The translations under genes were made by a program, and so were the position numbers. A stretch of 20,000 nt of DNA from an uncultured virus (IMG/VR IMGVR_UViG_3300020148_000031) (taxonomy: Duplodnaviria > Heunggongvirae > Uroviricota > Caudoviricetes): the IMG/VR virus record IMGVR_UViG_3300020148_000031. One strand, 5' to 3'. Under the pieces are notes generated by a model. The model had not been told where the DNA came from. It saw nothing but the letters and a program-made list of their open reading frames with translations, and ran no database searches. Shown in pieces: positions 1,790-19,307 of this stretch. Within the stretch, counting starts at the first letter, position 1; each line of letters begins with the position of its first letter.

Positions 1790-2761
1790 TTATTTACCTT
1801 CTTTTATCCTTCTTCTCATCGCATAGTGTACGTCTCGATCAACCTCCACTTTAAGAGCATTCTTAACATCAATTAGAGGTGTATTGGGATTTCCTGCCGC
1901 TCTGAAACGAATTCTTGCATCGTTAGACTTTAATAATATTTTTAAATCTTCAGGTTTAGCATTCTCATTATAAGCATAGCCCATTTTGTTTTCGCTTGAG
2001 CCGCTAGTCATAATCCACTTTTTATTTTTATCAGTGAGATTAGGGTTTTCACCAGCGGCAAGAGGTATAGGAGAGGAACTATGATTAAGTAAAGAAAATT
2101 GTTGTGAATCATTTGTCACTACTTTAGCTAGTTCGTAATGGGCACTGTGTGATTTTTCAGACTTTAAAATATCATCAATCTGATTTTTTAAAAGATTGTT
2201 CCCAATATGAAGAACAATGAGATGGTTCATTTTTGGATCTTGAGAATCTATAATAGAATCTAACACTCGATTTCCCTCTAAAGCTTTAATTAGAATAGCT
2301 TTTTCTTTAAGGTCAGAATGAAGCACGGAAGCGATTTGCCCAATTGACATTCCATCTGGATTCTTTAATTGTTTTTCAAAATTCTCTTGATTAATAAGTT
2401 GAGGGAGAGTTTCGCTCATGTATTCTTTGAATTCTTTATGTTTTATCAAAGCAGAATAATATTCACTAGAACGAGAGACAGTATCTGTTCTGTTAGCTAA
2501 ACTAGCAAACTGTTTCGAAGTAAGTGATCCATTTCTAAGGGGGAACAAAGGGTCTCCTCCAAAGCGATCTAGATCAAGATTGTTGTCAACAATTGATTTG
2601 AACGTATCAGAGTAATCATTTTCTAGTTTTTTAGAGTTTTTAAAATTAGCTTCTTCTAAAGAAACAGCGTCGATGTGTTGTTCTTCAGAAGCAAAAGGAC
2701 ATTTTCCTTTAACTGCTTTACATTTACTTACGACCCCGTTATTGTCAACATGAAATTTCAT
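1790..2761 (-). CDS. HCCH N-terminal module protein 1, with C-terminal LRV/HEAT-like helical repeats
   Basis: GGAGG at 2771-2767 favours ATG 2761 over TTG 2773. N-terminus is MKFHVDNNGVVSKCKAVKGKCPFASEEQH. C-terminus has A-x-N-P-N-type repeats (AAGENPNLT, AYNENAKPEDLKILL, RFRAAGNPNTP). Confidence 0.85.
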   Translation of the reverse strand: MKFHVDNNGVVSKCKAVKGKCPFASEEQHIDAVSLEEANFKNSKKLENDYSDTFKSIVDNNLDLDRFGGDPLFPLRNGSLTSKQFASLANRTDTVSRSSEYYSALIKHKEFKEYMSETLPQLINQENFEKQLKNPDGMSIGQIASVLHSDLKEKAILIKALEGNRVLDSIIDSQDPKMNHLIVLHIGNNLLKNQIDDILKSEKSHSAHYELAKVVTNDSQQFSLLNHSSSPIPLAAGENPNLTDKNKKWIMTSGSSENKMGYAYNENAKPEDLKILLKSNDARIRFRAAGNPNTPLIDVKNALKVEVDRDVHYAMRRRIKEGK

Positions 2762-2874
2762 AAAATCCTCCAAAGTTAATACATTATTATCTATATAATA
2801 CTAAACGCTTCTTCTATTTTTAACTTTTCTCGATACAAGTCAGCACATCGCAATTTATTTTCTCTTTTTTCAAT

Positions 2875-3624
2875 CTAAGAATATGGAGCATTATTAAGTT
2901 TTAGTTGATCTATTTCATAATAGAGCTCTAAATAATTTTTCTTTATGGAGAAATATTTTCCCATTGATTGATTCCAAGGGTTTCTCATGGAAGACATAAT
3001 CGGAGCTGGTAAATCTTTCATTTTTTCAAATTCTATTTTGTCTTTAGAGCTCATTTTATAATTAAAAGGTTTTTGTACTGTTATTGAAAGTTTAGACTCA
3101 AGTTCAGAATTTCTTTCTTCTTTCTCGCGAAGACTGTTTAATATATCTTGAGAATTAAGATTGTTTAAATATGGATAATACTCTTTTATATCTTTAATTG
3201 TTATATTTTTATTCTCTAAAAAATGATGTGTTGCTAGAGGTGAGAGTGTTCCAGATTTTAAATTTTCTATCTCTGTATTAATAAGACTTAAGGCTGTCAA
3301 TCTGTCAGAATAGCTCACTAATTGCCCTTTAGAAAAAATACTTTTCTTTATGTAGTTGCTAGTGTTTCTCTCGTTACATTTTGTTAAGAATACTTTATGA
3401 AATTCATTAGTGACTGAGTTGAAATCTCTATTAAGAGAGTAATCATAAATAAGCGCAGGAGCTTTATTTAACACTTCCCTTGCTATCTCTTCAGTTGTAA
3501 GAGGATGCAGGGCTAGAGAGTGAAGAGAATAATGTGAGTCCGAATCCTTTTCCATATGATAGAAATGATTAAAGAATTCTTGGTCATTAATTTTTGCAAA
3601 TAATTCTGGTATATCTTGTTTTTT
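2875..3624 (-). CDS. Probable C-terminal portion (helical, LRV-like) of HCCH module protein 2, in the -1 frame
   Basis: The ORF-track frame 2875..3555 stays open upstream (KKQDIPELFAKINDQEFFNHFYHMEKDS) past an A6C run at 3624-3618. It contains ALHPLTTEEIAREVL and LENKNITIKDI repeat-like motifs. Confidence 0.65.
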   Translation of the reverse strand, partial: KKQDIPELFAKINDQEFFNHFYHMEKDSDSHYSLHSLALHPLTTEEIAREVLNKAPALIYDYSLNRDFNSVTNEFHKVFLTKCNERNTSNYIKKSIFSKGQLVSYSDRLTALSLINTEIENLKSGTLSPLATHHFLENKNITIKDIKEYYPYLNNLNSQDILNSLREKEERNSELESKLSITVQKPFNYKMSSKDKIEFEKMKDLPAPIMSSMRNPWNQSMGKYFSIKKNYLELYYEIDQLKLNNAPYS

Positions 3625-4019
3625 AATCTTAGTAAAGATTGGTATCGCATTTCTAAAGGAAGTTCTATATCTTTAGAAAATTCGAAGAATAGTTTCCCTT
3701 CTATTGTATAAGGAGTTTCGGGGAAAGAGCTTTGAGTAATCTTCAAAAACTCCTGAACATAAAGTTCTTTCGGATTGAGATTATTATAAATGTATTCAAT
3801 ATACAATTCAGAGTATTTTCCCTCTTCAATAAGGGATCTATGAAACGAATCCTTGCTAAAGCTAGATATCTCTGAATGAAAATCTTTCATTATTTTCTCA
3901 TAAGCAGTTTGTGCTTCTTCTTTCGAATGATAGTGATTTTCAATCCCTCCGAAGGGACATGGTCCTTTGCTTGCTTTGCAGGGTGCTATAACACCCGAGC
4001 TATTGACATGATATGGCAC
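3513..4019 (-). CDS. HCCH N-terminal module protein 2 (N-terminal part; frameshifted relative to 2875..3624)
   Basis: GTG start; MPYHVNSSGVIAPCKASKGPCPFGGIENHYHSKEEAQTAYE matches the family motif. Its last ~35 codons overlap the downstream open frame. Confidence 0.8.
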   Translation of the reverse strand: MPYHVNSSGVIAPCKASKGPCPFGGIENHYHSKEEAQTAYEKIMKDFHSEISSFSKDSFHRSLIEEGKYSELYIEYIYNNLNPKELYVQEFLKITQSSFPETPYTIEGKLFFEFSKDIELPLEMRYQSLLRLKNKIYQNYLQKLMTKNSLIISIIWKRIRTHIILFTL

Positions 4020-4136
4020 CCGAACTACATTAATGTAATAAGTTTATTATCTAAACAATTTCTTTATCAAGAAATAATAACGAGGTGAGAAATAAAACTT
4101 TTTAGATAAGAAACAAAGTTTTGATAAGGAGAGAAA

Positions 4137-4745
4137 ATGCCTAAGTATCATTTAAATAAATATGGAGAACCAGCCCGTTGTGAAGCTGTAAAAATAGCGT
4201 GTCCATTAGGTGGAGCAGATGCCCATTTTGATGGAGATTTTAAAGACTCTATTGTTTGGGCCGAAAAAAAGAATGCGGAAAATCTAGCATTAAAAACTGT
4301 TCCGCAAGCAATAACTAATGACTCTATACAACATTCTGACTCTTGGTATGAGGATAAAGAAAGGATACAAGACGCATTGAAGATATTTCAACACAATATG
4401 AAAACATCTAAAATTAAAAAGCCAGAAAAACATTATTCAACTAATGCTGGTAAACTTAATATTACTAATTATGATGGTTCTGGTGCAAACTATATCACTC
4501 CAGGTGAGGATAGTTTTGTTGTTCTTACTTACCCTGACGGAAAAGGAGCCCGCGTAATTTCAAGCTATGGAGAGTTTTATCAAGACCCACAGTCCGCTAT
4601 AGGAAAATACGTTGTCCAATACAAACAATATTCTGGAAACAATGACGTGCAAAAAGATTTAGTGGTTGTTGGGTACATGTCGCGGGACGGGAAAAGATAT
4701 GGATATATTCCTAATCGTCAAGTTGCTTTCTTTGTTTATAAGTAA
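4137..4745 (+). CDS. HCCH N-terminal module protein 3, with an unrelated beta-rich C-terminal domain
   Basis: RBS AAGGAG before the ATG; MPKYHLNKYGEPARCEAVKIACPLGGADAHF. It is the only family member on the + strand. Confidence 0.85.
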   Translation: MPKYHLNKYGEPARCEAVKIACPLGGADAHFDGDFKDSIVWAEKKNAENLALKTVPQAITNDSIQHSDSWYEDKERIQDALKIFQHNMKTSKIKKPEKHYSTNAGKLNITNYDGSGANYITPGEDSFVVLTYPDGKGARVISSYGEFYQDPQSAIGKYVVQYKQYSGNNDVQKDLVVVGYMSRDGKRYGYIPNRQVAFFVYK

Positions 4746-4755
4746 TGTAAAATGA

Positions 4756-4802
4756 TACTATTAAGCCTCCATGACATATACAATCATGGAGGCTTAATAG
4801 TA
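4756..4802. terminator. Perfect 19-bp inverted repeat between convergent genes; probable bidirectional terminator
   Basis: tactattaagcctccatga (4756-4774), 9-nt loop, tcatggaggcttaatagta (4784-4802), lying between stops at 4745 and 4807. Confidence 0.75.
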
Positions 4803-4806
4803 AGAG

Positions 4807-6078
4807 TTATATACTCAAGGCCTTTTGAATCAAAAGACTATCTCTATATTTCCTGCTTAGATCTAAAACAAGACTTATTTGATTTCTTCCAATATCTCCA
4901 TTATAGTTCTCTAAAGATTCAGTCATTTCTTTAGTAGAATATTTCTTACCTGTAAGATATGACCATCTATTATTAAAATCATAAGGGTTTTCAGGGGTTC
5001 TTTGTTTCATCAACCTGTTATATTCTTGTTCTTCTTTTTCAGTGAGACCTTCAGTTTCATAAGGTGTAGGAATTCTTGGATTCAAAATAGTCTTTACTTT
5101 TTGAGGGACTGCTTTATCATTTTTTAATTTGTTGTATAAAACACCTTTAGAGTGCACTTGGATTCTTTCTTTGTTCTCTTTTAAATCAGAATATGTCATG
5201 TTTTCGTTAACGACTAAATTAGTTGAATCTTCATATTCCCATAATCTATCATCTCTCGTATTCTTCTTTACAAGATTTAATGCGAAATCTTTATCTGAGT
5301 AGCGAATAGAAATATGTCTAATTTCTCTAATAGAATTATTACTAACAAGAGGACTTATAGATTGAGGATCTTCCGTGTATCGTTTCATAAATCTAGTGCT
5401 GTATTCCTTTAATAATTCTTTATTTTTACCTGGATTTGCCCATTCATATTCTTCAATTAGAGAAGGGTCATTATCGAGTATTTGTCGAGTGATTTTTTCG
5501 GGAGTAGAGCTATTTTCTAATAAAACTTTTTCTAATGAACGATATTGATGGTATTTATCGTAAATTCTCTCAATAGCATCTTCACTTTTTATATATTGAG
5601 CAACACTCAAAAGATTAGTTAATTCGAGGTTTTTGATAATTTCATCTTTAACTTTCCCAGAAATATCGTCTCTTTCAAGTAAATATTCCTGTGCGTCAAT
5701 TTGTGAATATCTAGCTTCAGAAAAGGAGTCTTTATTTACTGGAGCTGTCACAATTGCAAACATTTCATCTATTTCTTCAGAAGTAAAGTTTCTCAAATAT
5801 ACAGAAAGACCAGAATCACCATTATCTTCTTTTTCCCATTGTGAGGCTAAATTATCTTTTAATGCTTGATGTTCTCTTAACGCTTGATGCTCTCTTTCAG
5901 CATTATCTTTATTGATTTTTTCAAAGATTCTTTTTTCGGGTCGCATTTGGACTTCATATGCTAATCTAGCGTCATGTTCGTCCTCATAATGATCATCGGC
6001 ACCCCCGAAAGGGCAATGGCCTTTAGTGGCTGAACATTTACCTGGTTCGCCTTTAGCATTAATATGATAAATTGCCAT
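4807..6078 (-). CDS. HCCH N-terminal module protein 4, with a helical LRV-like C-terminal region
   Basis: RBS AAGGA; MAIYHINAKGEPGKCSATKGHCPFGGADDHYEDEHDARLAYE; repeat-like motifs LLENSSTPEKITRQIL and VVNENMTYSDL. Confidence 0.85.
   Translation of the reverse strand: MAIYHINAKGEPGKCSATKGHCPFGGADDHYEDEHDARLAYEVQMRPEKRIFEKINKDNAEREHQALREHQALKDNLASQWEKEDNGDSGLSVYLRNFTSEEIDEMFAIVTAPVNKDSFSEARYSQIDAQEYLLERDDISGKVKDEIIKNLELTNLLSVAQYIKSEDAIERIYDKYHQYRSLEKVLLENSSTPEKITRQILDNDPSLIEEYEWANPGKNKELLKEYSTRFMKRYTEDPQSISPLVSNNSIREIRHISIRYSDKDFALNLVKKNTRDDRLWEYEDSTNLVVNENMTYSDLKENKERIQVHSKGVLYNKLKNDKAVPQKVKTILNPRIPTPYETEGLTEKEEQEYNRLMKQRTPENPYDFNNRWSYLTGKKYSTKEMTESLENYNGDIGRNQISLVLDLSRKYRDSLLIQKALSI
6001..6055. 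repeat. 55-bp direct repeat, copy 1 (codes for the core of the HCCH module)
   Basis: 53/55 identical to 6583-6637; mismatches only at 6018-6019. Confidence 0.9.
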
Positions 6079-6108
6079 AATTTTATCCTTTAATTTTTAT
6101 TTTGAAAT

Positions 6109-6663
6109 TTAAAAATCACCTAGAAGCGTCCATTCTGGTTCATCATCTTCTGGTTCATTTCTCACTACTAAACACACGAAAGATTTGTTAACCTCTTCCT
6201 GGTCGATTACTTCTACAAGTTTAGAATCTTTATTTATATCGTATAGAGTCTTAGCTGAGAAAACCTCTCCAGAATATACATCAGAAATTTCTTTTATGTC
6301 AGGATCGAAATCAACACTAGTTGGTATTTTCGAGTCTTCTGAAATTGACCACATTTCCGGATTTTCTTGATCATCTGGGTACGCAACTATAACATTAAAA
6401 GGTGTTTCTCTCTTAGGAAAATATAAAATTGCATATTCATCTGTTTTTATGACTGGTTGATATTTTTTAGAAGATCCAGTCCATTGATCGTAAATTCTTA
6501 TTGAAGTTGGCTTAGGAAAAGTTTCTTGTGAAGATTCAAAGGCAATAGCTGCTTCTTGAAAAGTATTAAAATGTTTCTCTGGACCCCCGAAAGGGCAATT
6601 ACCTTTAGTGGCTGAACATTTACCTGGTTCGCCTTTATCGTTGATATGAAATTTTGTCATCAT
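6109..6663 (-). CDS. HCCH N-terminal module protein 5; C-terminal domain homologous to that of 8264..8758
   Basis: RBS GGAGG (the second ATG at 6660 has better spacing); TKFHINDKGEPGKCSATKGNCPFGGPEKHFNTFQEAAIAFE. Confidence 0.85.
   Translation of the reverse strand: MMTKFHINDKGEPGKCSATKGNCPFGGPEKHFNTFQEAAIAFESSQETFPKPTSIRIYDQWTGSSKKYQPVIKTDEYAILYFPKRETPFNVIVAYPDDQENPEMWSISEDSKIPTSVDFDPDIKEISDVYSGEVFSAKTLYDINKDSKLVEVIDQEEVNKSFVCLVVRNEPEDDEPEWTLLGDF
6583..6637. repeat. 55-bp direct repeat, copy 2
   Basis: 53/55 identical to 6001-6055. Confidence 0.9.
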
Positions 6664-6690
6664 AAACCTCCGATAATTTTTCTAAAAAGA

Positions 6691-7311
6691 TTAGTAAAGA
6701 GCTCTCGTTTTGTTTTCTTTGCCTAATAAATCATCATCTTTAAAAGAGAAATTAGGTATCCAAAGTACAGCCTCACCTTTTTCAAGGGATTCTTTTACAT
6801 TAAGAACGCGCTGGTTAGAGCTGCCCGTAAACGAGCCTTGAAAAGTCTTCAAAGTCTTCATAAAAGGTCCATCAACAAGAACATCAATAAGAGATAATAA
6901 TTCTTTCTTATCATCAGAATCTTTTAATAATTGTTCAAAAGTATATCCAGACCACGACCAAATGTCTTTTTCAGGGAGTTCGTTTCTTATTCTTCTCACA
7001 AGGGGTATGAGAGTGGGTGTATTAAGGAACGGTTCTCCGCCTAATAAAGTAAGACCTTGAACATGAGGAAGAGCTAGATCTGACATGATTTTTTCTTCTA
7101 ATTCTTCAGTATAAGGTATTCCATTTCTGAAAGACCATGTTGCTTTATTAAAGCAGTCTTGACAAGCAAAAAGACAGCCTGACACATAGAGCGAACAGCG
7201 AACTCCTTCACCGTCAACTACAGTAAATGCTTTATAATCGGAAATGTAACCTTTTGAAAGCTTTAAACCATCCCAATTTTTAGGAGTTCTAAATAAAGAG
7301 TCTTCAGACAT
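6691..7311 (-). CDS. nrdG: Anaerobic ribonucleotide reductase activating protein (radical SAM)
   Basis: VVDGEGVRCSLYVSGC, CxxxCxxC (CLFACQDC), GLTLLGGEPFLN, DVLVDGPF and GSSNQRV motifs; nrdD is in the same window. Confidence 0.96.
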   Translation of the reverse strand: MSEDSLFRTPKNWDGLKLSKGYISDYKAFTVVDGEGVRCSLYVSGCLFACQDCFNKATWSFRNGIPYTEELEEKIMSDLALPHVQGLTLLGGEPFLNTPTLIPLVRRIRNELPEKDIWSWSGYTFEQLLKDSDDKKELLSLIDVLVDGPFMKTLKTFQGSFTGSSNQRVLNVKESLEKGEAVLWIPNFSFKDDDLLGKENKTRALY

Positions 7312-7333
7312 TTTTTCCCTTCAATACAGTACT

Positions 7334-7345
7334 ATTGTATCAAAA
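7334..7345 (-). promoter_or_regulatory. Putative extended -10 promoter of nrdG (TGATACAAT)
   Basis: Minus strand reads TTTTGATACAAT about 23 nt before the nrdG ATG. Confidence 0.45.
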
Positions 7346-7573
7346 TTTAATTTGATAAAGAATTAAATAGTTTTTCGTCAAGTTCCCTATCCTCTTTTTT
7401 CTTGTAGGGGAACTTTTTAATCTTTTCTTTAAGAACCACAAATAAGATTTCTTTATCATTTCTGCTGAAAGATAATATGGAATCTATCTGTTTTTACTAA
7501 CATGTGAATATGCTTGTTGCGCGCGCCAAATTCCCTCATTTCCAGTTTTAGTGTTAACGTGATAAGAGTTCAT
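7340..7573 (-). pseudogene. Decayed HCCH module gene
   Basis: ATG 7573 gives MNSYHVNTKTGNEGIWRAQQAYSHVSKNR* (TAG 7486-7484), then in frame IPYYLSAEMIKKSY. The two Cys positions read TGG and TAT, each one base from a Cys codon. The 3' boundary is uncertain. Confidence 0.6.
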
Positions 7574-7621
7574 AATTGCCCATCTTATAAAATAAATATA
7601 TATTTTTTCTAATGAAAAATA

Positions 7622-7843
7622 TTATTTTAAAAGAACAATAGTAGCTTCTGTAGCCTCAATAGCCTTCCATTGTTTTCCGAAAAGATAAACAGTATCACCT
7701 AAAGAAAAATTTGACTGCATATCAAGTTTATCTTGTCTTTCTAAAAGTAAAAACTTGTTTTCCGGTCTTTTAAAGACTGTTGCTCTTTTCTCGTTTTCTG
7801 TCACTGTTTCGTTGAAATTTAATACTAAAGTATTCACAATCAT
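7622..7843 (-). CDS. Small hypothetical protein (73 aa)
   Basis: Fills the gap between genes on the majority strand, has plausible composition and AAGAAGG upstream. No recognisable motif. Confidence 0.65.
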   Translation of the reverse strand: MIVNTLVLNFNETVTENEKRATVFKRPENKFLLLERQDKLDMQSNFSLGDTVYLFGKQWKAIEATEATIVLLK

Positions 7844-7904
7844 CCTTCTTTTATTTTTTGCATGTACTTATCTAAATAGGCTTTTATGTAATGCTATTAC
7901 ATTT

Positions 7905-8271
7905 CTATTTATTCTTTAAAAGTAAATCTTCTAATTTTTCTTTTGCTACTCTTGAAGAAAACGGAGCTTCAGAAAAAGATAAATATTCTAAGTCTTCTTT
8001 AGAGCAAAGAGGATTATTTACAAAACCGTCAGAATAATCACGATTGTAAGGGTTTTTAATAGAGCGTCTGATAATTGATGATGATTCCTCATCTAAAATC
8101 TCATTGCTGGCAATACAACTTTTTACTACTAAAGATTTATGATAAAGTAAAGAAGACATTATTTCCGTTTCTTTAGTAAATTCATCAATTTTAGAAAGAT
8201 AAGATTCTTCTCCCGAAAGGGCGCGCTTTATATTTTGCTGAACATTTAGAGATATTACCCTCTTTATTCAT
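7905..8271 (-). pseudogene. Frameshifted, decayed HCCH module gene with an LRV-like C-terminus (includes ORF 7905..8159)
   Basis: ATG 8271 (preceded in frame by TTG TTT CAA) gives MNKEGNISKCSAKYKARPFG, with the second Cys as CGC. A frame change near 8211 leads into EESYLSKIDEFTKETEI-MSSLLYH and VNNPLCSKEDLEYLS. It shares cccgaaagggc and gctgaacattta with the 55-bp repeat. Confidence 0.7.
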
Positions 8272-8758
8272 TTGAAACAAACCACCTTTGGTTATTTAAT
8301 CTAGCAAAAAGAATCATTGAGAAACCCTCATTGTCTTGGTCTTTTACTTCTATCAGTCTTAACCCCTTATCAATTTGTTTGATGAGAGAAGAAGAATACA
8401 CTGTTTCTGAAACAGTGTCAATAGAAATGAAATCTTCCGAAAACTCATCGCTCGTAGGGATCCTTATTGAGTCTATTTTCTCGTAGAAATCATCAAAATC
8501 ATTCTTTCTTACAAGAGAATATTTTGAACCATTTAAAAGTACAGAATAATTCTTACTCGATAATACTGGTTGCGTAGTAATAAAATCTTGAGATGTTTTT
8601 ACCTTTATAGATGGGTAAAGTCTCGATTTTTGTGATTTTTCATAGAACGCTCGCGCTTCTTCTTTTGAAGAGAAATGGTTTTCTATAGAGTCAAAAGGAC
8701 ATTGTATTTTTGCATGACATTTATTAATCTCACCGGTCTCAAAATTTATATGAAACAT
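8264..8758 (-). CDS. HCCH N-terminal module protein 6; C-terminal domain homologous to that of 6109..6663
   Basis: RBS AAGGAG; MFHINFETGEINKCHAKIQCPFDSIENHFSSKEEARAFYE. Confidence 0.85.
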   Translation of the reverse strand: MFHINFETGEINKCHAKIQCPFDSIENHFSSKEEARAFYEKSQKSRLYPSIKVKTSQDFITTQPVLSSKNYSVLLNGSKYSLVRKNDFDDFYEKIDSIRIPTSDEFSEDFISIDTVSETVYSSSLIKQIDKGLRLIEVKDQDNEGFSMILFARLNNQRWFVSNE

Positions 8759-8791: not shown

Positions 8792-11236
8792 TTATTCAAA
8801 ATTTACTTGAACAGGTATGCTAGAATTAGTCGTAGAATTATTACCGAGTTGACCATGAGAGTTAACACCCCAAGCATAGATTTTACCTTCGGAATCAAGA
8901 GCGAGGGAGTGATTATTTAACGCTGCTATTGCGGTTATTGTCTTGACAGCGAGTACCCCGCTAGTGCTAACTTGAACAGGTATGCTAGAACTAGTCGTAG
9001 AATTATTACCGAATTGACCACCAGCGTTATTACCCCAAGCATAGATTTTACCACCAGAATCAAGAGCGAAGGAATGATTAATTCCCGCTGCTATTGCGGT
9101 TATTGTCTTGCCAGCGAGTACGCCGCTAGTGTTAACTTGAATAGGTATTCTAGCCTCAGTTGTAGAATTATTACCGAGTCGACCGGAATTGTTAGAACCC
9201 CAAGCATAGACTTTACCGTCAGAATCAAGAGCGAGGGAATGACTACTTCCTGCGGAGATTGCGATTATTGTCTTTCCAGCGAGTACGCCGCTAGTGTAAA
9301 CTTGAACAGGTATGCTAGAATCAGTTGTAGAATTATTACCGAGTTTACCAGAAGTGTTATTACCCCAAGCGTAGACTTTACCGTTAGAATCAAGAGCGAG
9401 GGAATGAGTAAATCCCGCTGCTATTGTGGTTATTGTTTTACCAGCGAGTACGCCGCTAGTGTTAACTTGAACAGGTACGCTAGAATCAGTCGTAGAATTA
9501 TTACCGAGTTGACCATTACCGTTAAGACCCCAAGTATATACTTTACCGTCAGAATCAATGGCAAGAGAATGAACACCGCCCGCTGCTATTGCAGTTATTG
9601 TTTTGCCAGCGAGTACCCCGCTAGTGTCAACTTGAACAGGTATGTTAGAATTAGTTGTAGAATTATTACCGAGTTGACCAGAAGCGTTACTACCCCAAGC
9701 ATAGATTTTACCTTCGGAATCAAGAGCGAGAGAATGAGTATTTCCCGCTGCTATTGCGGTTATTGTCTTGCCAGCGAGTACCCCGCTAGTGTCAACTTGA
9801 ACAGGTATGCTAGAACTAGTCGTAGAATTATTACCGAGTTGACCAGTACCGTTAAAACCCCAAGCATAGACTTTACCTTCGGAATCAATGGCAAGAGAAT
9901 GATTACTTCCCGCTGCTACCGAAACAATATTTGTAATATCTGGAAGGTCATTCACGGTCTTTTCAATTACTGGTGAGTAACCGGAAGAATTGTAGGCCGA
10001 TACGCTTGCTTTAACTGTTGTTGCTGTTACTCCAGTCGGTCTGGAAATGTTTGTTGACATTACTGATGAACTAACAGTGGTTTCTTCTGTAAAGACAATA
10101 TTATTGCTAGAGTCGTACCCAGTGAGGGTTATTTTGTAGCCTTGGTGGTTAGAGTTGGATGTGTCAGTCCATGATATGTCGTAAGAGTGATTATTGTTAA
10201 GTATGTTTGGTGTTAGTTCTACATTGTCAACGGAATCAGGTATAAGGATGATCGGTTGAACGGGACTTTCTTTCTTATCGCTACTTCCAAATCGATTAAG
10301 TGCTTCTACTCGAGCTATCGCGTATTTAACATTAGAACCATTAGTGCTAGTTATAGTAGTTGAAAGGGTATCGCCAACAGTTTTACTAATAGAGCCAATA
10401 TAATTTGGGTCAGTGTTATTCATCTGAATCACAATAGTTCCAAGGCTCGTACCTCCACTTGAAGGGTCGGCAGAGTATTCGTCAACTGTTACTTGGTACC
10501 CAGTAATAGATGGGTCGTTAGGGTCTTCCCAGCTAATATCATAAACTAGGTTATCTTCACTATAAGAATAGGAAAGAGTTGCCTCAGGGGTAACCTGTGG
10601 AAGTAGAGCTCTCACTTGGTTAAGAGAGAAGTTAACAGAATTAAGAGGTATGTTTGTTTGCATGTTTTCGGTTGCAGTATCTTTGAACCACAATCGCAAC
10701 TCAACAGTTACATCAGTAACACTAGCAGGAGTAATCTCTAAATTATTAGCAGTTAAACCATCAGGAATAGGGTCATCAGTATAATTTGAGCTTGAAAATA
10801 GAATTGAAGAATCATTATCAATATTAGTCCAATCGCCATTATTAATACGATAGTCCACTTCTATTTCATTTGGAACGACTTCGTTCTGAATTTGAACAAT
10901 CATGTCGGCTAAAGCGTGTTCACCTTCAAGAGCCACTTGAACATCGTAAGTACCGATAACAGTATCTCCCGGAACTATTCTAAAATCACTAATGTCAGAA
11001 ATTTTTCCCGCTGTAGTGACTTTATCTTCAGAATCAAGAGAGCCTTTACTTCCGTCTTTTAGAGATACATCTTCCCAACCGTTGTTAATGACATTAAGGT
11101 CAAGGTTACCAGAGAATACTTCTCCGCTATCGGCTGTTGAAGAAACATTCCATAATGCAAAAGTTCCGGCGGCTGCGGCAGCAATGAGAAGTCCGGAAAC
11201 AATTGCTCCTGCGCTTTTTAAAGTATTCTTTTGCAT
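8792..11236 (-). CDS. Exported protein: SipW-class signal peptide, TasA/camelysin-like domain, two FN3-like domains and a 7-repeat RCC1 beta-propeller
   Basis: N-terminus AAAAAGTFALWN...SGNLDL and IVPGDT; two ISW..GY....(A/S)..N..G FN3-like segments; seven IAAGxxHSLALDSxGKVYAWGxNxxGQLG repeats. Confidence 0.85.
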   Translation of the reverse strand: MQKNTLKSAGAIVSGLLIAAAAAGTFALWNVSSTADSGEVFSGNLDLNVINNGWEDVSLKDGSKGSLDSEDKVTTAGKISDISDFRIVPGDTVIGTYDVQVALEGEHALADMIVQIQNEVVPNEIEVDYRINNGDWTNIDNDSSILFSSSNYTDDPIPDGLTANNLEITPASVTDVTVELRLWFKDTATENMQTNIPLNSVNFSLNQVRALLPQVTPEATLSYSYSEDNLVYDISWEDPNDPSITGYQVTVDEYSADPSSGGTSLGTIVIQMNNTDPNYIGSISKTVGDTLSTTITSTNGSNVKYAIARVEALNRFGSSDKKESPVQPIILIPDSVDNVELTPNILNNNHSYDISWTDTSNSNHQGYKITLTGYDSSNNIVFTEETTVSSSVMSTNISRPTGVTATTVKASVSAYNSSGYSPVIEKTVNDLPDITNIVSVAAGSNHSLAIDSEGKVYAWGFNGTGQLGNNSTTSSSIPVQVDTSGVLAGKTITAIAAGNTHSLALDSEGKIYAWGSNASGQLGNNSTTNSNIPVQVDTSGVLAGKTITAIAAGGVHSLAIDSDGKVYTWGLNGNGQLGNNSTTDSSVPVQVNTSGVLAGKTITTIAAGFTHSLALDSNGKVYAWGNNTSGKLGNNSTTDSSIPVQVYTSGVLAGKTIIAISAGSSHSLALDSDGKVYAWGSNNSGRLGNNSTTEARIPIQVNTSGVLAGKTITAIAAGINHSFALDSGGKIYAWGNNAGGQFGNNSTTSSSIPVQVSTSGVLAVKTITAIAALNNHSLALDSEGKIYAWGVNSHGQLGNNSTTNSSIPVQVNFE
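8806..9916 (-). repeat. Seven tandem 165-bp coding repeats (RCC1 blades)
   Basis: Units begin on the minus strand at 9916, 9751, 9586, 9421, 9256, 9091 and 8926 (last unit truncated). High nucleotide identity outside a few codons. Confidence 0.95.
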
Positions 11237-11344: not shown

Positions 11345-12295
11345 ATGATATATAATATTATGAATAAACTCTATTCTTTACACTGCAAAAGATGTAAAAA
11401 AGAATTCCTATCTAAATACAAGAATAAGAAGTATTGTCATGATTATTATGAGACAAGTTGTTCAGAATGTTCTTCTCTTTTTAAGGCCAGATGTATTCAA
11501 GAAAGAAAATTTTGTTCCGATAGATGTAACAACATTTCAAAAAAGAGAAAATCGTCTTATTCCCCAAAAAGAGGCTCTATAAAAGAATGTAAATTGTGTC
11601 ATGAAGAATTTCTTTCCGAATTTAAAAAATCGTATTGCTCTAATCATATTTTCTTTTGCTCTTATTGTTCTTCTCCATTGAATATAAAACCATTAATAGC
11701 GAAGAAAAAACTAGAGAAAAACCTTCACCTTTTCTGTGATAACACCTGTCATAACTTTTATAAAACAGGAAAAAAGATGAATTCTGGTGATTTAAAATTA
11801 TTCAAAAATCAGAAACAATGGGCTTTAGACTTTGAAAGAGAAAACACCCGCAAACCTACAAAAAATGATTTTCAAAAATACTTTAATCTCCCCAAAAGTA
11901 CAATACCGCATAAAGACGCGCTTCCTTATATGTCTAATAATAGAGGGTCAAGGTTAGAAGAAATTGTATATGATTATGTTTCAATGATTTATGGTGGGTC
12001 TGTTTTGCGAAATCAGAAAATAATACCAAAAGATACGAGAGGAAATTTAGAAATAGATATTTTTATTCCCGCTTTAAAAATAGGGTTTGAAATACAAGAT
12101 TTTAAAACGCATTCTAAAGAAGATGATCAAGAAATTGGATCTTTTGGGAAATTTAAAAATGGACCGCAATATCATCAGAACAAGAAAGGCTTAGCTAGAA
12201 ATATTAATATAGATTTGTTTGAGATTTGGGAAGATGAAATAATAAACGCCACATTCAAAGAGAAAGTGGCGTCTATTATTAATAAAAATCTTTAA
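11345..12295 (+). CDS. Putative free-standing homing endonuclease: Cys-rich Zn-ribbon repeats plus a Vsr/DUF559-like PD-(D/E)xK nuclease domain
   Basis: Repeated CxxC...[FY]C units in the N-terminal half. C-terminal SRLEEIVY...LEIDIFIPALKIGFEIQD...H and IDLFEIWEDE. Convergent with nrdD. The start may be ATG 11360. Confidence 0.7.
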   Translation: MIYNIMNKLYSLHCKRCKKEFLSKYKNKKYCHDYYETSCSECSSLFKARCIQERKFCSDRCNNISKKRKSSYSPKRGSIKECKLCHEEFLSEFKKSYCSNHIFFCSYCSSPLNIKPLIAKKKLEKNLHLFCDNTCHNFYKTGKKMNSGDLKLFKNQKQWALDFERENTRKPTKNDFQKYFNLPKSTIPHKDALPYMSNNRGSRLEEIVYDYVSMIYGGSVLRNQKIIPKDTRGNLEIDIFIPALKIGFEIQDFKTHSKEDDQEIGSFGKFKNGPQYHQNKKGLARNINIDLFEIWEDEIINATFKEKVASIINKNL

Positions 12296-14831: not shown

Positions 14832-17800
14832 TCATTGAACGTTTGAAGTTCCAGAACAAGTCATTGATTCCTGAGGAAGAAGAGTAGTCTTTGGGCAAGT
14901 AATGACAGTTCCAGCATCATCTGTTACAGAAATGTTATAAATGCTAATGAAAGAATTATTAAGAACCGTGTATGTCCACGTTGCACTATCGTTGTAATGG
15001 AGAACATTAGTAGAATTACGAGTTTTAGTAATCGTAAGTTCTGGATACGGGTTATTAATAGTTACTTTTAGAGTTTGTGAAGATGAAAGAGTTGCTTGAC
15101 TTTGTTCTCCAACTCCAGTAAGATTAAATGTAGTTTCATTGTAATCTCCAGCATAAAGAGTTCCAATATTTGCTGTACAAGTAACAGTATCACCAATATT
15201 AAGAGTCATTCCTGAAGTAAAAGGTGCCGAGTTAAAGGTACACACAAGGTTTTGTAGATTGTTTCCTTCTACAAGAGTGCTGTTGAAATTAATGTTTGAA
15301 ATATTTTCATTTCCAGAATTTGTAAAGTGAATACTTACTGGAACAACTTCCCCATTAATGTTAGGATCCAAAGTTACTATGTCTTGTTCTGTTGTTCCTT
15401 CTACTTGAGAAAGTAGGAATCCACTTGGTATCGAATAGAAACCAGCATTAACATATATTGTATTTCCATTAGTAACAGATATGTTTTGAGCAGTATTTTT
15501 TACTGTTGTGTAATTTCCAATTTGTGATACATCACTTAGAGAGTAATCATTGACAGCATCCACTGGTACATATTGAGTTCCAGAATCACCTGTTTCTGGA
15601 GTAGAGAACGAAACAGTATAATTGTTAGGAAGAACATTGTTAAAGGAATATTCTCCAAGAGAATTAGTTGTTGTTTGAGCAATTTGATTAGTATTCTGAT
15701 AAAGAGTTACTGTGATTCCTGATTCTAATTGACTTGTAGAACTAGAATATGAAGAATTATTAAAGTCATTTGTCCATACTTTACCAGTAATTGTTCCTCC
15801 AGATATTGCTGCTGAGATTTGTATACCTACTTCAGTACATAGAGGGTAAGAATCTAAATCTCCGTTAACAGTAATATTTTCAGAACATCCTACAACCTCA
15901 GAGTTAAAGATTCCGCTAGTTGAACTACTTGGAAGATACGGCACGCTTGTAGAGTTTCCACCGCTTATATAATCAGAAATTTGTGTATTTGTTGAATTAA
16001 CATAGACTTGATTAAAGATATCTTGAGAAACAAGAGTCTTAGAAATTGTTCCACTGATAATAAGGTTAGTTGATTCTCCAGCGGCGAGGTGAGGGATAGT
16101 ATATGTATTTCTGTTGTATCCGTTAGAGTTACTTTCAGTTGATGGAACTGCTAGAATTCTATTATTTGAATAATATTTTGCAAGAGCTGGTTGTACTCGA
16201 CTCATGTAATTCGTATTTTCTACACCAGTATTACTTGCTTGCGAACCCTTTGACCAAACAGTGTTATCTTTGAGTAAGTAATAAATTCCATTAAGAGTTA
16301 CTTTTACGTCTTTAACTGTTTTAGTCTCTAAACCGACAGTGGCTTTTGCTGTTGTTGTATTAGTAAGAGAGTTAGAATATGTATCATCAGCTCTATAACC
16401 CCAAGTATATGCCTTACCATTAGAGTCAATAGCAACAAATGAAGAATAGTTATATGCTGCAGAAACAGAATTTTCATCAAGGTTATCACTATAAAATTGT
16501 GAAACAGTTACATTTTCAAGACCAGGCTGAACTTGAGGAGTTGTAGTTACTCCAATTCTATAAAGACTTCCAGTAGAGGAAAGAGCATAAGAGTATTTAG
16601 CGTCCTCACTATACTCTCCCATATAAACATGAGTGATGTTAAAAAGCCCATTAATTTGTATTGGTTCGCTATTTGCTGATTCGGAACTTGTTCCATTGAC
16701 ATACCCAGTTCCTTCTCCCCAAGACCAAACATTTCCAGTAGACGTTAACGCATAAGCTCCGTTAACCCTAGGAGATATTTGTGTTACTATCACTCCATTA
16801 AGTTTAGAAAGATTATTTGCTATAGGATTATCTGTTGTTTCTTGGTCACCATTAACACCATTAGTTCCTATACCCCAAGCATATACTTTTCCAGAATTAG
16901 ATATTGCGAAAGCTCCAAGACTGTCAGTTTTTACTACTATGTCTTTGATTCCATCTACTGGTAATCCTTGTACTATTTCTGCTGAGTAGAGTATACCTGT
17001 ATTATTATTACCGTTTGCATAATTAGTTCCTGCTCCCCAAGAGTATACTTCTCCTGCTGTAGTAAGAACATAAGCTCCGTTGGCTCTTGGATAAACTTTT
17101 GACACTATTACATTAGAAAGCCCGCTTACGGGTGTTGCCACCGATGTACTTATTGAATATCCAGATACACCTGAAGTGTTAGAACCCCAAGAGTATACTT
17201 TACCGCTTTGTGTAAGAGCATAAATAGCGGTTGATGATGGGTAGATATCTGTTACAACTTCGCTTGAAAGTCCCTGTACAAGAGCTGGGCTATATGCAAT
17301 AGATGCTGCATTGTTATTACCTAGAGATCCAGAATTATTTGTACCCCAAGCATAAATCTTTCCATCCGAAGTGAGAGCATATACTGTGTTTCCGTTAGCA
17401 ATCACTTTAGTAGCAAAACCAGGAATATCTACTTTAGCAGCATATGGTTGATTAGCAAGAGTTGTATCACCGTTCCCTAATCGTCCACCTACACCAAGAC
17501 CCCAAGAATATACTTCACCGTCGCTGTTAATGGAGTAACCACCATTGCTGCTTACTCCATAAAAACCCGTTACGTCATTAAGCTTTGACATTTGAGAGGG
17601 AAACAAGTTAAGAGCAGTTGTTGCATTAGTAATTTTAAAAATTTCTCCAGTTGACGAACTATAAGCCATTCCCGACTCTGAAACATCAGTAATAACATGA
17701 CCAGTAAGTCCGCTCATAAGGGTTGGAGTCAAATTAATAATTGAGGTCCCATTAGAAAGAGTCACTTTACCTAAAGTATATACCTCTCCGCTAGATGTGA

Positions 17801-19307
17801 TAGCAAAAGCACCTTGACCTTGAGATACTAATTTAACAACATTTGAAATAGTAGTAAGTTTTACAGGAGTTTCTACTGTTGATGATGAATTATTACTATT
17901 ATAATAATATGATGATCCACCCGATACACCCCAAGTATATACATCGCCAGTGCTGGATAATGCATAACCTCCACTGTATCCTCTAAGTACTACATCTACA
18001 ATAGGGTTAGTTCCAACATACTCAGTACTTTGGATAAAAGGGATGTAATGATCACTTGATGTAGATCCTAGCCCATAATTAGCATTAGAACCCCAAGTGA
18101 GTAATGCACCCTCATCAGTGAGAGCAAATACTGTATAAACATTTTTTGAAAGAGTCCCAAAAATTATCTTGTTGACATGATATGAAGAAGTTCCAGAAAC
18201 TATTGTTGGGGTGGTATAAGAAGTAGTATTATCGTTTGCTATACCAGCATATTGACCGCTTGAGCCCCAGAAGTAAACAACTCCATTATTACTAACAGCA
18301 TAGGCGCCACCTAGCGGGCGCGGATAAATATCTTCTACTACAACTCCAGTAAGATCCCCTCCTATGAGTGTAGGTGTAGAGACCGTTGCTGTAGAACTTG
18401 TTCCATTAGAATAAGAAGCTCCAGAGCCCCATGTATAAACTTGACCTGATGTAGTGATAGCATAGGCTCCAGAAATTGAAGGCTTAAGAACTAATTTTTC
18501 AACATTTGAAAGATTTGAGATAATTGCAGGTATGCTAGCTGTACCAGCTCTTCCTAATTTATCGACACTCGAACCCCAAGAATATACATGACCATCTGAA
18601 GTAAGAGCAAAAGCCTGCGCATTAGTTGGATCTTCAGTCATGTAAATATCTACAATGTTAAGAGAAGATAATTCTGGAATTTCTTCTGGGTAAAGAGACG
18701 CCCCTGTACTTGCTCTTCCAGTAAGATTACTTGCCGGGTCACCCCAAGAATATACACGTCCATCTTCAGTTAGAAGAAGAGTGGCGTTTGAAGTCATAAG
18801 GACTTTTTTTACATCACCTACAGCATCAAGATATACTCTTGAAAGAGGGTTAGTCGCTGCTGTATCCATGGTAGAGTAATTACCGGATTGTCCATTAGGC
18901 GCACCATAAAGATATCCGCCGTCAGTTTGAACATAAACTCCATTATAAAATTGGGCTCCAGTCGATCCATCTTCAAAACTTGTTAATCTTGTAGGATCAT
19001 TGAAAGAAGAAAATTGACCGCTTACTCCACTATCAAGAATAGATGCTTGATAATTGAAAACACTATCATTTAAAACATTTGTTAAAGAGAAATTATTGAC
19101 TGAAGTGTCAGTATTATTAGTAACGTTCACTGTGTATTCAACATCACATTCAGTGTCAGTGCAACTAAGTTGAGAAATATTACTATCTACACTTAATAAA
19201 TCTGCTCCTACAGAGCTAGTGTCAGAACTAGCGGCAATAGGTAAGAACGAAAGTAATAATACTGCACCTATAATGAGAGTAATAATACTGTAAAAAGATT
19301 TTTTCAT
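14832..19307 (-). CDS. Large secreted/surface protein: signal peptide, many divergent RCC1 repeats, a CnaB/SdrD-B-like domain and DUF11-like Ig domains
   Basis: Sec-type N-terminus; 13 clear xxWG RCC1 motifs plus degenerate ones; ITGKVW.D...GITVTL...TTTNSLGEYSFNNVLPNNYTVSF; terminal WTYTVLN...VTDD...CPKTTLLPQESMTC. No C-terminal membrane or LPXTG anchor. Confidence 0.85.
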   Translation of the reverse strand: MKKSFYSIITLIIGAVLLLSFLPIAASSDTSSVGADLLSVDSNISQLSCTDTECDVEYTVNVTNNTDTSVNNFSLTNVLNDSVFNYQASILDSGVSGQFSSFNDPTRLTSFEDGSTGAQFYNGVYVQTDGGYLYGAPNGQSGNYSTMDTAATNPLSRVYLDAVGDVKKVLMTSNATLLLTEDGRVYSWGDPASNLTGRASTGASLYPEEIPELSSLNIVDIYMTEDPTNAQAFALTSDGHVYSWGSSVDKLGRAGTASIPAIISNLSNVEKLVLKPSISGAYAITTSGQVYTWGSGASYSNGTSSTATVSTPTLIGGDLTGVVVEDIYPRPLGGAYAVSNNGVVYFWGSSGQYAGIANDNTTSYTTPTIVSGTSSYHVNKIIFGTLSKNVYTVFALTDEGALLTWGSNANYGLGSTSSDHYIPFIQSTEYVGTNPIVDVVLRGYSGGYALSSTGDVYTWGVSGGSSYYYNSNNSSSTVETPVKLTTISNVVKLVSQGQGAFAITSSGEVYTLGKVTLSNGTSIINLTPTLMSGLTGHVITDVSESGMAYSSSTGEIFKITNATTALNLFPSQMSKLNDVTGFYGVSSNGGYSINSDGEVYSWGLGVGGRLGNGDTTLANQPYAAKVDIPGFATKVIANGNTVYALTSDGKIYAWGTNNSGSLGNNNAASIAYSPALVQGLSSEVVTDIYPSSTAIYALTQSGKVYSWGSNTSGVSGYSISTSVATPVSGLSNVIVSKVYPRANGAYVLTTAGEVYSWGAGTNYANGNNNTGILYSAEIVQGLPVDGIKDIVVKTDSLGAFAISNSGKVYAWGIGTNGVNGDQETTDNPIANNLSKLNGVIVTQISPRVNGAYALTSTGNVWSWGEGTGYVNGTSSESANSEPIQINGLFNITHVYMGEYSEDAKYSYALSSTGSLYRIGVTTTPQVQPGLENVTVSQFYSDNLDENSVSAAYNYSSFVAIDSNGKAYTWGYRADDTYSNSLTNTTTAKATVGLETKTVKDVKVTLNGIYYLLKDNTVWSKGSQASNTGVENTNYMSRVQPALAKYYSNNRILAVPSTESNSNGYNRNTYTIPHLAAGESTNLIISGTISKTLVSQDIFNQVYVNSTNTQISDYISGGNSTSVPYLPSSSTSGIFNSEVVGCSENITVNGDLDSYPLCTEVGIQISAAISGGTITGKVWTNDFNNSSYSSSTSQLESGITVTLYQNTNQIAQTTTNSLGEYSFNNVLPNNYTVSFSTPETGDSGTQYVPVDAVNDYSLSDVSQIGNYTTVKNTAQNISVTNGNTIYVNAGFYSIPSGFLLSQVEGTTEQDIVTLDPNINGEVVPVSIHFTNSGNENISNINFNSTLVEGNNLQNLVCTFNSAPFTSGMTLNIGDTVTCTANIGTLYAGDYNETTFNLTGVGEQSQATLSSSQTLKVTINNPYPELTITKTRNSTNVLHYNDSATWTYTVLNNSFISIYNISVTDDAGTVITCPKTTLLPQESMTCSGTSNVQ

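Follow-up and report, generated by a model that had tools for sequence, protein, structure and literature searches.

A stretch of 20,000 nucleotides (nt; about 33% G+C) from an uncultured virus (IMG/VR record IMGVR_UViG_3300020148_000031), called the window throughout, contains an array (positions 1790-8758) of genes whose products begin with the same module of about 45 residues and continue into different bodies. The module carries a His-Cys-Cys-His (H-C-C-H) pattern and was found at the N-terminus of a large protein family, which appears to characterise a single clade of huge (jumbo/mega) bacteriophages that includes the genomes G001 and G308 described below. An initial annotation, made from the sequence alone, had proposed that the array encodes a modular system in which a constant tag is joined to variable cargos. 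This reading is supported by the results.

All six open reading frames (ORFs) claimed to open with the H-C-C-H module were confirmed (Table 1). The ligand spacing is H-x9/10-C-x5/6-C-x7-H, the residues H, G, C, A, K, C, P and H are invariant among the six copies, and a helix of the type S.EEA..AYE usually stands behind the module. The window was scanned in six frames with a hidden Markov model (HMM) built from the six copies, whose scores of 80-92 bits are therefore by construction. The same scan detected two remnants, one of them marginal, in agreement with the proposed total of eight copies in 7 kb. The shared body of proteins 5 and 6 (184 and 164 amino acids, aa) was also confirmed (E 7.6e-5, 36.5% over 52 aa). 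Protein 1, for which the mechanical ORF opens at a TTG at position 2773, is identical to database protein P0004, and its body, with NPNTP-type motifs, has no counterpart among the other window proteins. The body of protein 3 is also found in P0082 and has no counterpart elsewhere in the window.

A profile made from the six sequences matched 3,823 clusters (50% identity) at E<=1e-3 and 732 at E<=1e-10 among 1.84 billion representatives. With thousands of matches, the module signal is far above chance. The match started within residues 1-7 in the best 150 of the 3,823 clusters, and a word-based search returned 155 longer proteins. The strict N-terminal position was followed in 240 inspected relatives: the module started at residue 1-7 in every one of them, and at residue 1 in 219. 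Just one of them, P0121 (293 aa), had an additional, incomplete module-like stretch (residues 60-85, 19 bits) behind the N-terminal one. His5, Gly10, Cys15, Ala17, Cys22, Pro23 and His30 were kept in all 240 relatives and Ala37 in 237, figures that are biased upward because the inspected proteins are the best-scoring members. The four putative ligands are invariant also in two alignments of 141 (A3) and 120 (A4) sequences. Among divergent copies of genome G001 the Pro is replaced, and one copy lacks the fourth His. The bodies of the relatives are nearly cysteine-free.

The module had been described as lacking a named domain, and the database searches agreed with this. No match was found in Pfam or NCBIfam at E<=0.1, in PHROGs or PADLOC at E<=0.01, or among PDB sequences at E<=10. 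In the ESM Atlas the best score for residues 1-50 was 0.78, under the useful range. Open-access full texts held no account of the module under the words searched; matches to 'HCCH' were names of nuclear magnetic resonance experiments. Judged by sequence comparison, the module is a domain family absent from Pfam, NCBIfam and PHROGs. An AlphaFold2 model based on an alignment of 141 sequences (mean predicted local distance difference test score, pLDDT, 81.9) consists of a beta-hairpin (residues 5-7/13-15), a loop with the CP motif and a helix (residues 35-47). When the model was compared with PDB structures by Foldseek, no match was obtained at E<=1e-3, the best being Kunitz domains at 0.45. VIA-align against 48,161 chains gave a best Z of 3.9, again for a disulfide-stabilised Kunitz domain, and placed a C2H2 finger at Z 2.0, this comparison having low power with a model of 53 residues. 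As modelled, the Kunitz likeness is one of common hairpin-plus-helix layout and not of relationship. The predicted structure is probably a new metal-binding fold, in which one Zn ion is most probably held by the predicted ligands His5, Cys15, Cys22 and His30.

The bodies behind the module are diverse, as the initial annotation had stated. The 246 cargos fell into 131 BLAST components, 90 of which were singletons, and a recognised domain was present only in a small minority of the 252 relatives scanned; for most cargos the effector role proposed in the initial annotation is putative. Among 115 relatives compared with Pfam, four bodies were above the cut-off, four were sub-threshold only and 107 gave no match; the families in this set were RNA_lig_T4_1 (Rnl1-type RNA ligase, twice), ART-PolyVal and Zn_ribbon_Top1. 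A second set of 120 relatives contributed HD_5/HD, 2H-SAK, Zeta_toxin/AAA_33 and MORN_2, with weak matches to Tox-PLDMTX and LPD29. The 17 copies of G001 and G308 contributed ADPrib_exo_Tox, a CCA-adding enzyme (PolyA_pol), a ResIII/Helicase_C helicase of 922 aa and PARP. Three different ADP-ribosyltransferase families thus stand among the cargos. Cluster members of two cargos carry the names 'ssDNA-binding Zn-finger/Zn-ribbon topoisomerase 1' and 'barstar'. Since different Pfam enzyme families occur among the bodies, the cargos represent many folds, and a single diverged fold is excluded.

The proposal that some cargos are LRV/HEAT-like repeats was not confirmed for the module proteins of the window, which had no Pfam match, but the commonest body of the family, a group of 15 that includes P0095, modelled as an alpha-solenoid. 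In the P0095 model (pLDDT 86.6) the module is followed by the solenoid (residues 60-312) and a small alpha/beta domain, and the structural neighbours are generic armadillo/HEAT/LRV-type only. P0095 is apparently encoded on the same contig of 436,884 bp as the window. The cargo model was made for this group; the cargos of the window have few relatives, and their alignment (A5) is poor outside the module.

The expansion of the family within single genomes was borne out by two further IMG/VR records. G001 (309,534 bp, 35% G+C, CheckV completeness 100%) contains 11 copies, and G308 (88,999 bp, 53% G+C, 31% complete) contains six, five of them within 13 kb. G308 is syntenic with G001, and the ribonucleotide reductases (RNR) of the two are 72% identical. 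Eight metagenome loci of the Joint Genome Institute carry 1-5 copies each (2-5 in six of them), mostly as same-strand arrays. Two of the loci (L046 and L049) are syntenic with G001, and three others, L043 (from a 727-kb contig), L047 (from a 475-kb contig) and L048, have at least one further gene in common with G001 or G308. Three DUF7487 proteins, one with a Mom-like domain, were noticed in L042, L049 and G001; in G001 and L049 they are encoded within a few kb of module genes.

G001 has the gene content of a huge phage. The PHROGs scan, which covered 145 of its 320 ORFs (those of at least 205 aa lying inside single 20-kb pieces), identified a UvsX-like recombinase, DnaB, primase, Dda helicase, a split DNA polymerase, clamp and clamp loader, and in addition RIIA, a T4-type topoisomerase II, LigA, class I RNR, PhoH and a sigma factor (phrog_351). 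A dozen or more homing endonucleases flank or interrupt the genes for RNR, DNA polymerase, DnaB and topoisomerase. On one strand lie 257 of the 320 ORFs. A single block (record positions 145,134-178,814; L059-L060) holds 66 tRNAs, including a predicted suppressor with anticodon TTA, and behind it stand a signal recognition particle-like RNA and a transfer-messenger RNA (tag ANANKNAYALAA). No Rfam family, ribosomal RNA included, was matched in the 280 kb scanned. The type IV secretion system pilin family PF18895 had no match in G001, and the FtsK/SpoIIIE family PF01580 had four, one of them over the family cut-off. One module gene of L060 (8131-9567, + strand) encodes the CCA-adding enzyme (PolyA_pol head and tRNA_NucTran2_2) behind a module without the fourth His, and overlaps the preceding module gene, which encodes an ADP-ribosyltransferase exoenzyme, by 8 nt. 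Matches to 'terminase' PHROGs came from inserts in a 937-aa protein (L055:1461-4274) and in DnaB (L057:4925-7225), and these apparent terminase matches are largely intein-like. By tblastn the inserts also match genes for terminase, helicase, exonuclease and HNH proteins in unrelated phages, and they are most likely inteins with a homing endonuclease.

Because the module is conserved, folded and strictly N-terminal on unrelated soluble bodies, it is best read as a common handle. The hairpin-plus-helix of the first ~45 residues, most probably held by a metal ion, would form this handle at the front of each soluble protein. The bodies behind it would be interchangeable: alpha-solenoid binders, ADP-ribosyltransferases, RNA-repair and tRNA enzymes, kinases, a helicase and orphan folds. 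By the handle, auxiliary or host-takeover proteins would be brought to one shared partner. If that partner is the assembling head, the cargo would be packaged and delivered along with the DNA, by analogy with Alt and the internal proteins of T4. The A-[YF]-E at the end of the module helix (positions 40-42; A in 156, Y or F in 170 and E in 173 of the 240 relatives, about two thirds) would be a possible prohead-protease site, although its conservation may be purely structural. New members would arise by duplication and recombination at the conserved 5' segment and would decay quickly.

By this analogy the module may be a packaging or compartment tag whose partner is most likely the assembling phage head, a reading that we put forward tentatively. 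A wider version, in which the folded zinc mini-domain is the universal sorting tag of one huge-phage clade, takes its cargos to a phage-built compartment (either the interior of the head, for injection together with the DNA, or some other phage-made body) and offers its DNA as a recombination handle, appears doubtful; the tag would then cover some 3-4% of the phage proteins (11 of ~320 ORFs in G001). The analogy with the head is favoured because the family sits in huge-phage genomes and three ADP-ribosyltransferase families are found among the cargos. The phage setting, by the same analogy, favours targeting to the virion or to a compartment over secretion. A secretion tag, which the initial annotation had listed among the possible roles, is unlikely, since no transmembrane or signal-like segment was detected in any of the 240 relatives and the context is that of a phage.

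Several observations weigh against a head or compartment tag. The copies of G001 are spread over the genome, among replication and tRNA regions, with no recognisable head genes adjacent. No major capsid protein was recognised among the G001 ORFs covered by the PHROGs scan, and since the inserts described above are intein-like, the terminase annotation is unreliable. The prohead protease families PF03420 and PF04586 had no match in G001, although the control for PF03420 also remained without any match. The module is a folded domain of ~45 residues, unlike the T4 capsid targeting sequence (CTS) of 10-20 residues, and E42 in the putative cleavage motif is not invariant (D in 32 of 240). Cargos such as the CCA-adding enzyme, the RNA ligases and the 922-aa helicase are atypical of the head interior and could mean targeting to RNA or nucleic acid, or work in the cytoplasm. 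Besides the module, all that the window has in common with G001 and G308 is a phrog_3339 homing endonuclease and an upstream motif of similar type, and it encodes a membrane FtsH, so that its replicon may be cellular. The module was absent from three complete huge phages of 357-378 kb, the profile had no match at E<=1 in the whole record of Bacillus phage G, and pattern scans of IMG/VR found only two loci. In view of its absence from other huge phages and the few IMG/VR loci, the module is clade-specific and not general. Searches by tblastn with the module and with P0012 matched no cultured phage in 50,697 GenBank phage records and nothing in 72,556 plasmid records.

The closest parallels come from phages that mark proteins at the N-terminus. 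As described in PMC5694885, the prohead protease of T4 removes a CTS from the N-terminus of Alt and of the internal proteins, the ejection proteins of giant phages have long N-terminal propeptides cut at AXE/SXE, and the diverged paralogues gp53 and gp54 have identical N-termini. Like the module, the T4 CTS (of Alt and IPI-III) and the propeptides of phiKZ, 201phi2-1 and SPN3US are strictly N-terminal on unrelated or diverged phage proteins, and in the T4 and giant-phage paralogues, as in the module family, conserved N-termini precede diverged bodies. T4 Alt is an ADP-ribosyltransferase, a type of cargo that recurs in the module family. An [A/S]-x-E-type motif stands behind the element in the giant-phage propeptides and, as A-[YF]-E, in the module, where it may be structural; the site of the prohead protease is L/I-x-E in T4 and A/S/G-x-E in giant phages. 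However, the T4 CTS has no Cys/His site, whereas the module is a folded H-C-C-H element of 45 residues, and the giant-phage propeptides exceed 100 residues and are unrelated to it in sequence. The copy number of the module (11 per 309 kb) is also far above that of the CTS-type elements of T4 and the giant phages. If the model is correct, the module departs from the T4 CTS in both length and fold.

Other constant modules of phages show partial likeness. Bacillus phage G contains tens of copies of a zinc-ribbon module for which PMC7824862 gives the function as unknown and proposes a transcription factor or DNA-binding protein. Like the zinc ribbon, the H-C-C-H module is a small, Cys-based and putatively metal-binding unit expanded in a huge phage genome. 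The zinc ribbon, however, has no homology to the module at E<=1, and in gp32, a 117-aa protein, it is an internal CPxC...CPxGC at residues ~24-50; it is neither strictly N-terminal nor an H-C-C-H element on large variable bodies. Phage tailspikes and receptor-binding proteins consist, according to PMC12692247 and other papers, of a conserved N-terminal anchor and an exchangeable C-terminal domain, with modular swapping. This constant dock with a swappable body resembles the module proteins, but the tailspike bodies are trimeric fibres or depolymerases outside the virion, whereas enzymes and solenoids of cytoplasmic type make up the module bodies, and the module itself is dissimilar to tailspike anchors (no PHROG match). 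In its way of working the module would, by analogy, come closest to a CTS or propeptide, or to an N-terminal anchor; if this function holds, it would be a new, structured variant of the phage sorting tag.

Polymorphic toxins and the polyvalent proteins of phages and conjugative elements (Aravind group) carry variable conflict-type domains on a constant, delivery-related part. The module family resembles them in joining ART-PolyVal, a weak LPD29 and a zeta-type kinase to a constant part. Polyvalent proteins are giant multi-domain proteins, whereas the module proteins have one cargo each, and the N-terminal domains of polymorphic toxins belong to secretion systems (LXG, PAAR, RHS), whereas the module family has neither such domains nor export signals. 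Few of the module cargos are toxin-like. In the window and the related loci the neighbours of the module genes are other module genes or phage genes, and no immunity family was recognised there, although no systematic immunity search was made.

The predicted metal site would also suit an RNA- or nucleic-acid-binding zinc knuckle that brings the cargos to tRNA, mRNA, ribosomes or phage DNA, with no packaging involved. This explanation is unlikely, although most of the recognised cargos act on RNA, DNA or nucleotides (the two Rnl1-type ligases, 2H-SAK, HD, the Pnk-like kinase, the topoisomerase Zn ribbon, the CCA enzyme and the superfamily 2 helicase) and the CCA-enzyme copy lies inside the tRNA region of G001. 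The first 26 residues of the module are Lys-rich with conserved aromatics, but the first 48 have a mean net charge of -1.0 +/- 2.1, and the helix is acidic. Moreover, the commonest cargo is an alpha-solenoid protein binder, RNA targeting is not needed by ADP-ribosyltransferases or orphan acidic bodies, and a strict N-terminal position is unnecessary for nucleic-acid binding. The absence of a significant structural match (best Z 3.9; Foldseek E 0.45) is a weak negative, given the 53-residue model.

The regions upstream of the module genes were compared. In G001 the promoter-like motif T[TA]TAGAAA was present within 120 nt upstream of 7 of the 11 module ORFs, compared with 13 among the 309 remaining ORFs (odds ratio 40, Fisher p 3.5e-7), and most of the module genes have their own intergenic spacer. 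With the shared motif and their own spacers, the G001 module genes look like one transcription class. Genome-wide, the motif stands upstream of 20 of the 320 ORFs, with a TATAA-like element 3-5 nt further on. In the window, TTTAGAWAA had seven matches (seven were reached in 2 of 200 shuffles) as against 2.4 expected, and was found upstream of three module genes.

A single promoter class is one of the points that speak for a docking or regulatory handle serving another machine, either a phage-encoded AAA+ protease (timed removal or adaptor-mediated degradation) or a metal-, redox- or heme-sensing switch. The window FtsH gene (1-1743, - strand), which encodes a full-length, membrane-anchored protein with two transmembrane segments, an AAA domain and a HEAGH peptidase, follows the array immediately on its downstream side, in the same orientation; an ATP-dependent protease (phrog_4871, E 1e-105) is encoded by G001; and alpha-solenoid bodies are typical of target-binding adaptors. 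The invariant Cys-Pro of the module resembles heme-regulatory motifs. We nevertheless consider such a handle quite unlikely. Cargos that are enzymes are hard to reconcile with an adaptor role, the known degrons of FtsH and Lon are unstructured tails and not folded domains, and the FtsH adjacency was observed in the window alone, the similarity of the G001 protease to the window FtsH being weak (tblastn E 3.8e-4 over 57 residues).

Traces of recent exchange were found within the array. The module-coding parts of genes 4 and 5, whose bodies are unrelated, share an exactly identical run of 36 nt (~56 nt with two mismatches), and assembly-graph contigs of three sequencing runs break exactly there (6026-6049 and 6608-6631), a sign that the module DNA has recently undergone recombination or gene conversion. 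The body of protein 4 (423 aa) is related to the product of ORF 2875-3555 (E 4.4e-4, 20.5% over 195 aa), which lacks a module. This ORF overlaps ORF 3513-4019 by 43 nt and was for that reason assigned to module protein 2; the two are probably one paralogue split by a frameshift, with the break near 3513-3555. Contigs of two runs (X1 and X3) cover the stretch without differences, and the frameshift is therefore not an error of a single assembly. The identical run, the two remnants and the split gene argue for rapid birth, exchange and death of family members.

Such turnover could also mean that the module is an inherited N-terminal leader without a common biochemical function, spread by birth-and-death paralogy and by recombination downstream of a shared 5' segment that comprises the promoter, the ribosome site and the first 45 codons. 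The 36-nt identity between adjacent genes with unrelated bodies, the branching of the assembly graphs at this run, the decayed copies, the split gene and the common upstream motif would all be accounted for in this way. Nevertheless, the ligands and Gly10, Ala17 and Pro23 are kept in all 240 best relatives, whose genomes range over 33-57% GC and whose proteins are ~25-60% identical, and the module is modelled with confidence. As only selection on a folded module explains the retention of the ligands across such divergent genomes, a leader devoid of function is improbable.

The replicon to which the window belongs is probably a phage. The presence of the family speaks for this, as does the TTTAGAWAA element upstream of three module genes, which is like the G001 motif. 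Its homing endonuclease (11345-12295, + strand, 316 aa; phrog_3339, E 2.3e-13) directly adjoins nrdD and is 33% identical over 303 aa to one of the G001 copies, and all other annotated genes of the window have PHROG counterparts. The FtsH matches phrog_30773 over its full length (5e-135), and FtsH-like genes thus occur in some phage records, although such a complete membrane-anchored FtsH would be unusual in a phage and no relative of the window FtsH was found in IMG/VR. Besides the FtsH, two large RCC1-repeat proteins and the lack of further genes in common with G001 or G308 speak against a phage origin. The window also encodes NrdDG. For NrdD, the relatives in IMG/VR are only 35-40% identical, while those in species genomes reach 54-63% (Lactobacillales, Trueperella) and 31-36% (Clostridia). 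A Saccharibacteria-type bacterium had been considered as the organism and was dropped after the phage evidence; nothing relevant was found in PMC13622651 and PMC12102498. The window DNA is present in three 'ant metagenome' sequencing runs, two of which may be its source, and in no listed RNA run. Scans for tRNAs in the window and the eight metagenome loci found none.

There is little probability that the replicons are small-genome bacteria (e.g. Patescibacteria) and the module a tag for contact-dependent effector export into a host cell: the contigs of 437-828 kb on which family members occur exceed most known phages in size, FtsH, NrdDG and surface-like proteins of RCC1 type are encoded in the window, and IMG/VR contains few members, but both of the whole records open to examination are huge phages, the loci from the 727-kb and 475-kb contigs have genes in common with G001 or G308, the PHROG counterparts of the window genes extend to FtsH, no signal peptide or transmembrane segment occurs in the 240 relatives, and a pattern scan of 185,579 species genomes gave 15 chance-level matches and none confirmed (the pattern fits only 27 of 240 members), with one marginal match (E 9e-4) in 301 Actinomycetota genomes.

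Huge phages have hundreds of genes of unknown role, and to our knowledge the way in which proteins are chosen for travel with the DNA or for compartments built by the phage is little understood except in T4 and the phiKZ group. If the module is a packaging or compartment tag, its 45 residues would provide a sequence-based list of thousands of candidate delivered or co-localised proteins, among them ADP-ribosyltransferases and RNA-repair enzymes that are new and directed against host defence. No protein-sorting signal described so far for a bacterial virus would be both structured and dependent on a metal, and the DNA of the module, acting as a recombination handle, would permit fast swapping and invention of cargos. 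The module would also offer a compact and portable means of bringing foreign proteins into phage particles, a use to which the T4 CTS has already been put. Even if the tag idea fails, the 3,823-cluster domain family would serve as a metagenome marker for one huge-phage clade.

Table 1. Module genes, remnants, candidate promoter elements and the repeated run in the window
Feature	Position	Strand	Remarks
Module protein 1	1790..2761	(-)	323 aa from ATG at 2761; HMM 82.5 bits
ORF without module, likely displaced body of protein 2	2875..3555	(-)	226 aa; paralogue of the 423-aa (4807-6078) body
Module protein 2	3513..4019	(-)	168 aa; HMM 87.8 bits
Candidate promoter element TTTAGATAA	4047..4055	(-)	28-36 nt upstream of module protein 2
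Candidate promoter element TTTAGATAA	4101..4109	(+)	28-36 nt upstream of module protein 3
Module protein 3	4137..4745	(+)	202 aa; HMM 85.6 bits; sole + strand copy
Module protein 4	4807..6078	(-)	423 aa; helical body; HMM 90.3 bits
36-nt run	6020..6055	(-)	Module-coding part of protein 4; identical to 6602-6637
Module protein 5	6109..6663	(-)	184 aa; acidic body, common to protein 6; HMM 91.6 bits
36-nt run, partner	6602..6637	(-)	Module-coding part of protein 5
Candidate promoter element TTTAGAAAA	6678..6686	(-)	15-23 nt upstream of module protein 5
Marginal decayed module copy	~7487-7573	(-)	E 0.25, weak alone; reads MNSYHVNTKTGNEGIWRAQ (MNSYHVNTKTG...); Cys1->Trp
TTTAGATAA element	7868-7876		Upstream of small ORF 7622-7843
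Decayed module copy	~8194-8277	(-)	16.9 bits, E 1.4e-4; reads FQMNKEGNISKCSAKYKARPFG; His1->Gln, Cys2->Arg, then stop
Module protein 6	8264..8758	(-)	164 aa; HMM 79.8 bits

Between the decayed copies two small ORFs, 7622-7843 (-) and 7905-8159 (-), encode 73 and 84 aa without a family match. They may be leftovers of former cargo bodies; ORF 7905-8159, which lies in another frame downstream of the remnant at 8194-8277, may be the former body of that remnant.

Two large RCC1-repeat proteins with an N-terminal hydrophobic segment are encoded in the window at 8792-11236 (-) and 14832-19307 (-). ORF 8972-9976 (+) was rejected as a gene, being an antisense artefact of the RCC1 repeats. The repeat region 8800-10800 shows many strain differences and indels, a 302-nt skip between sequencing runs and inflated contig depth.

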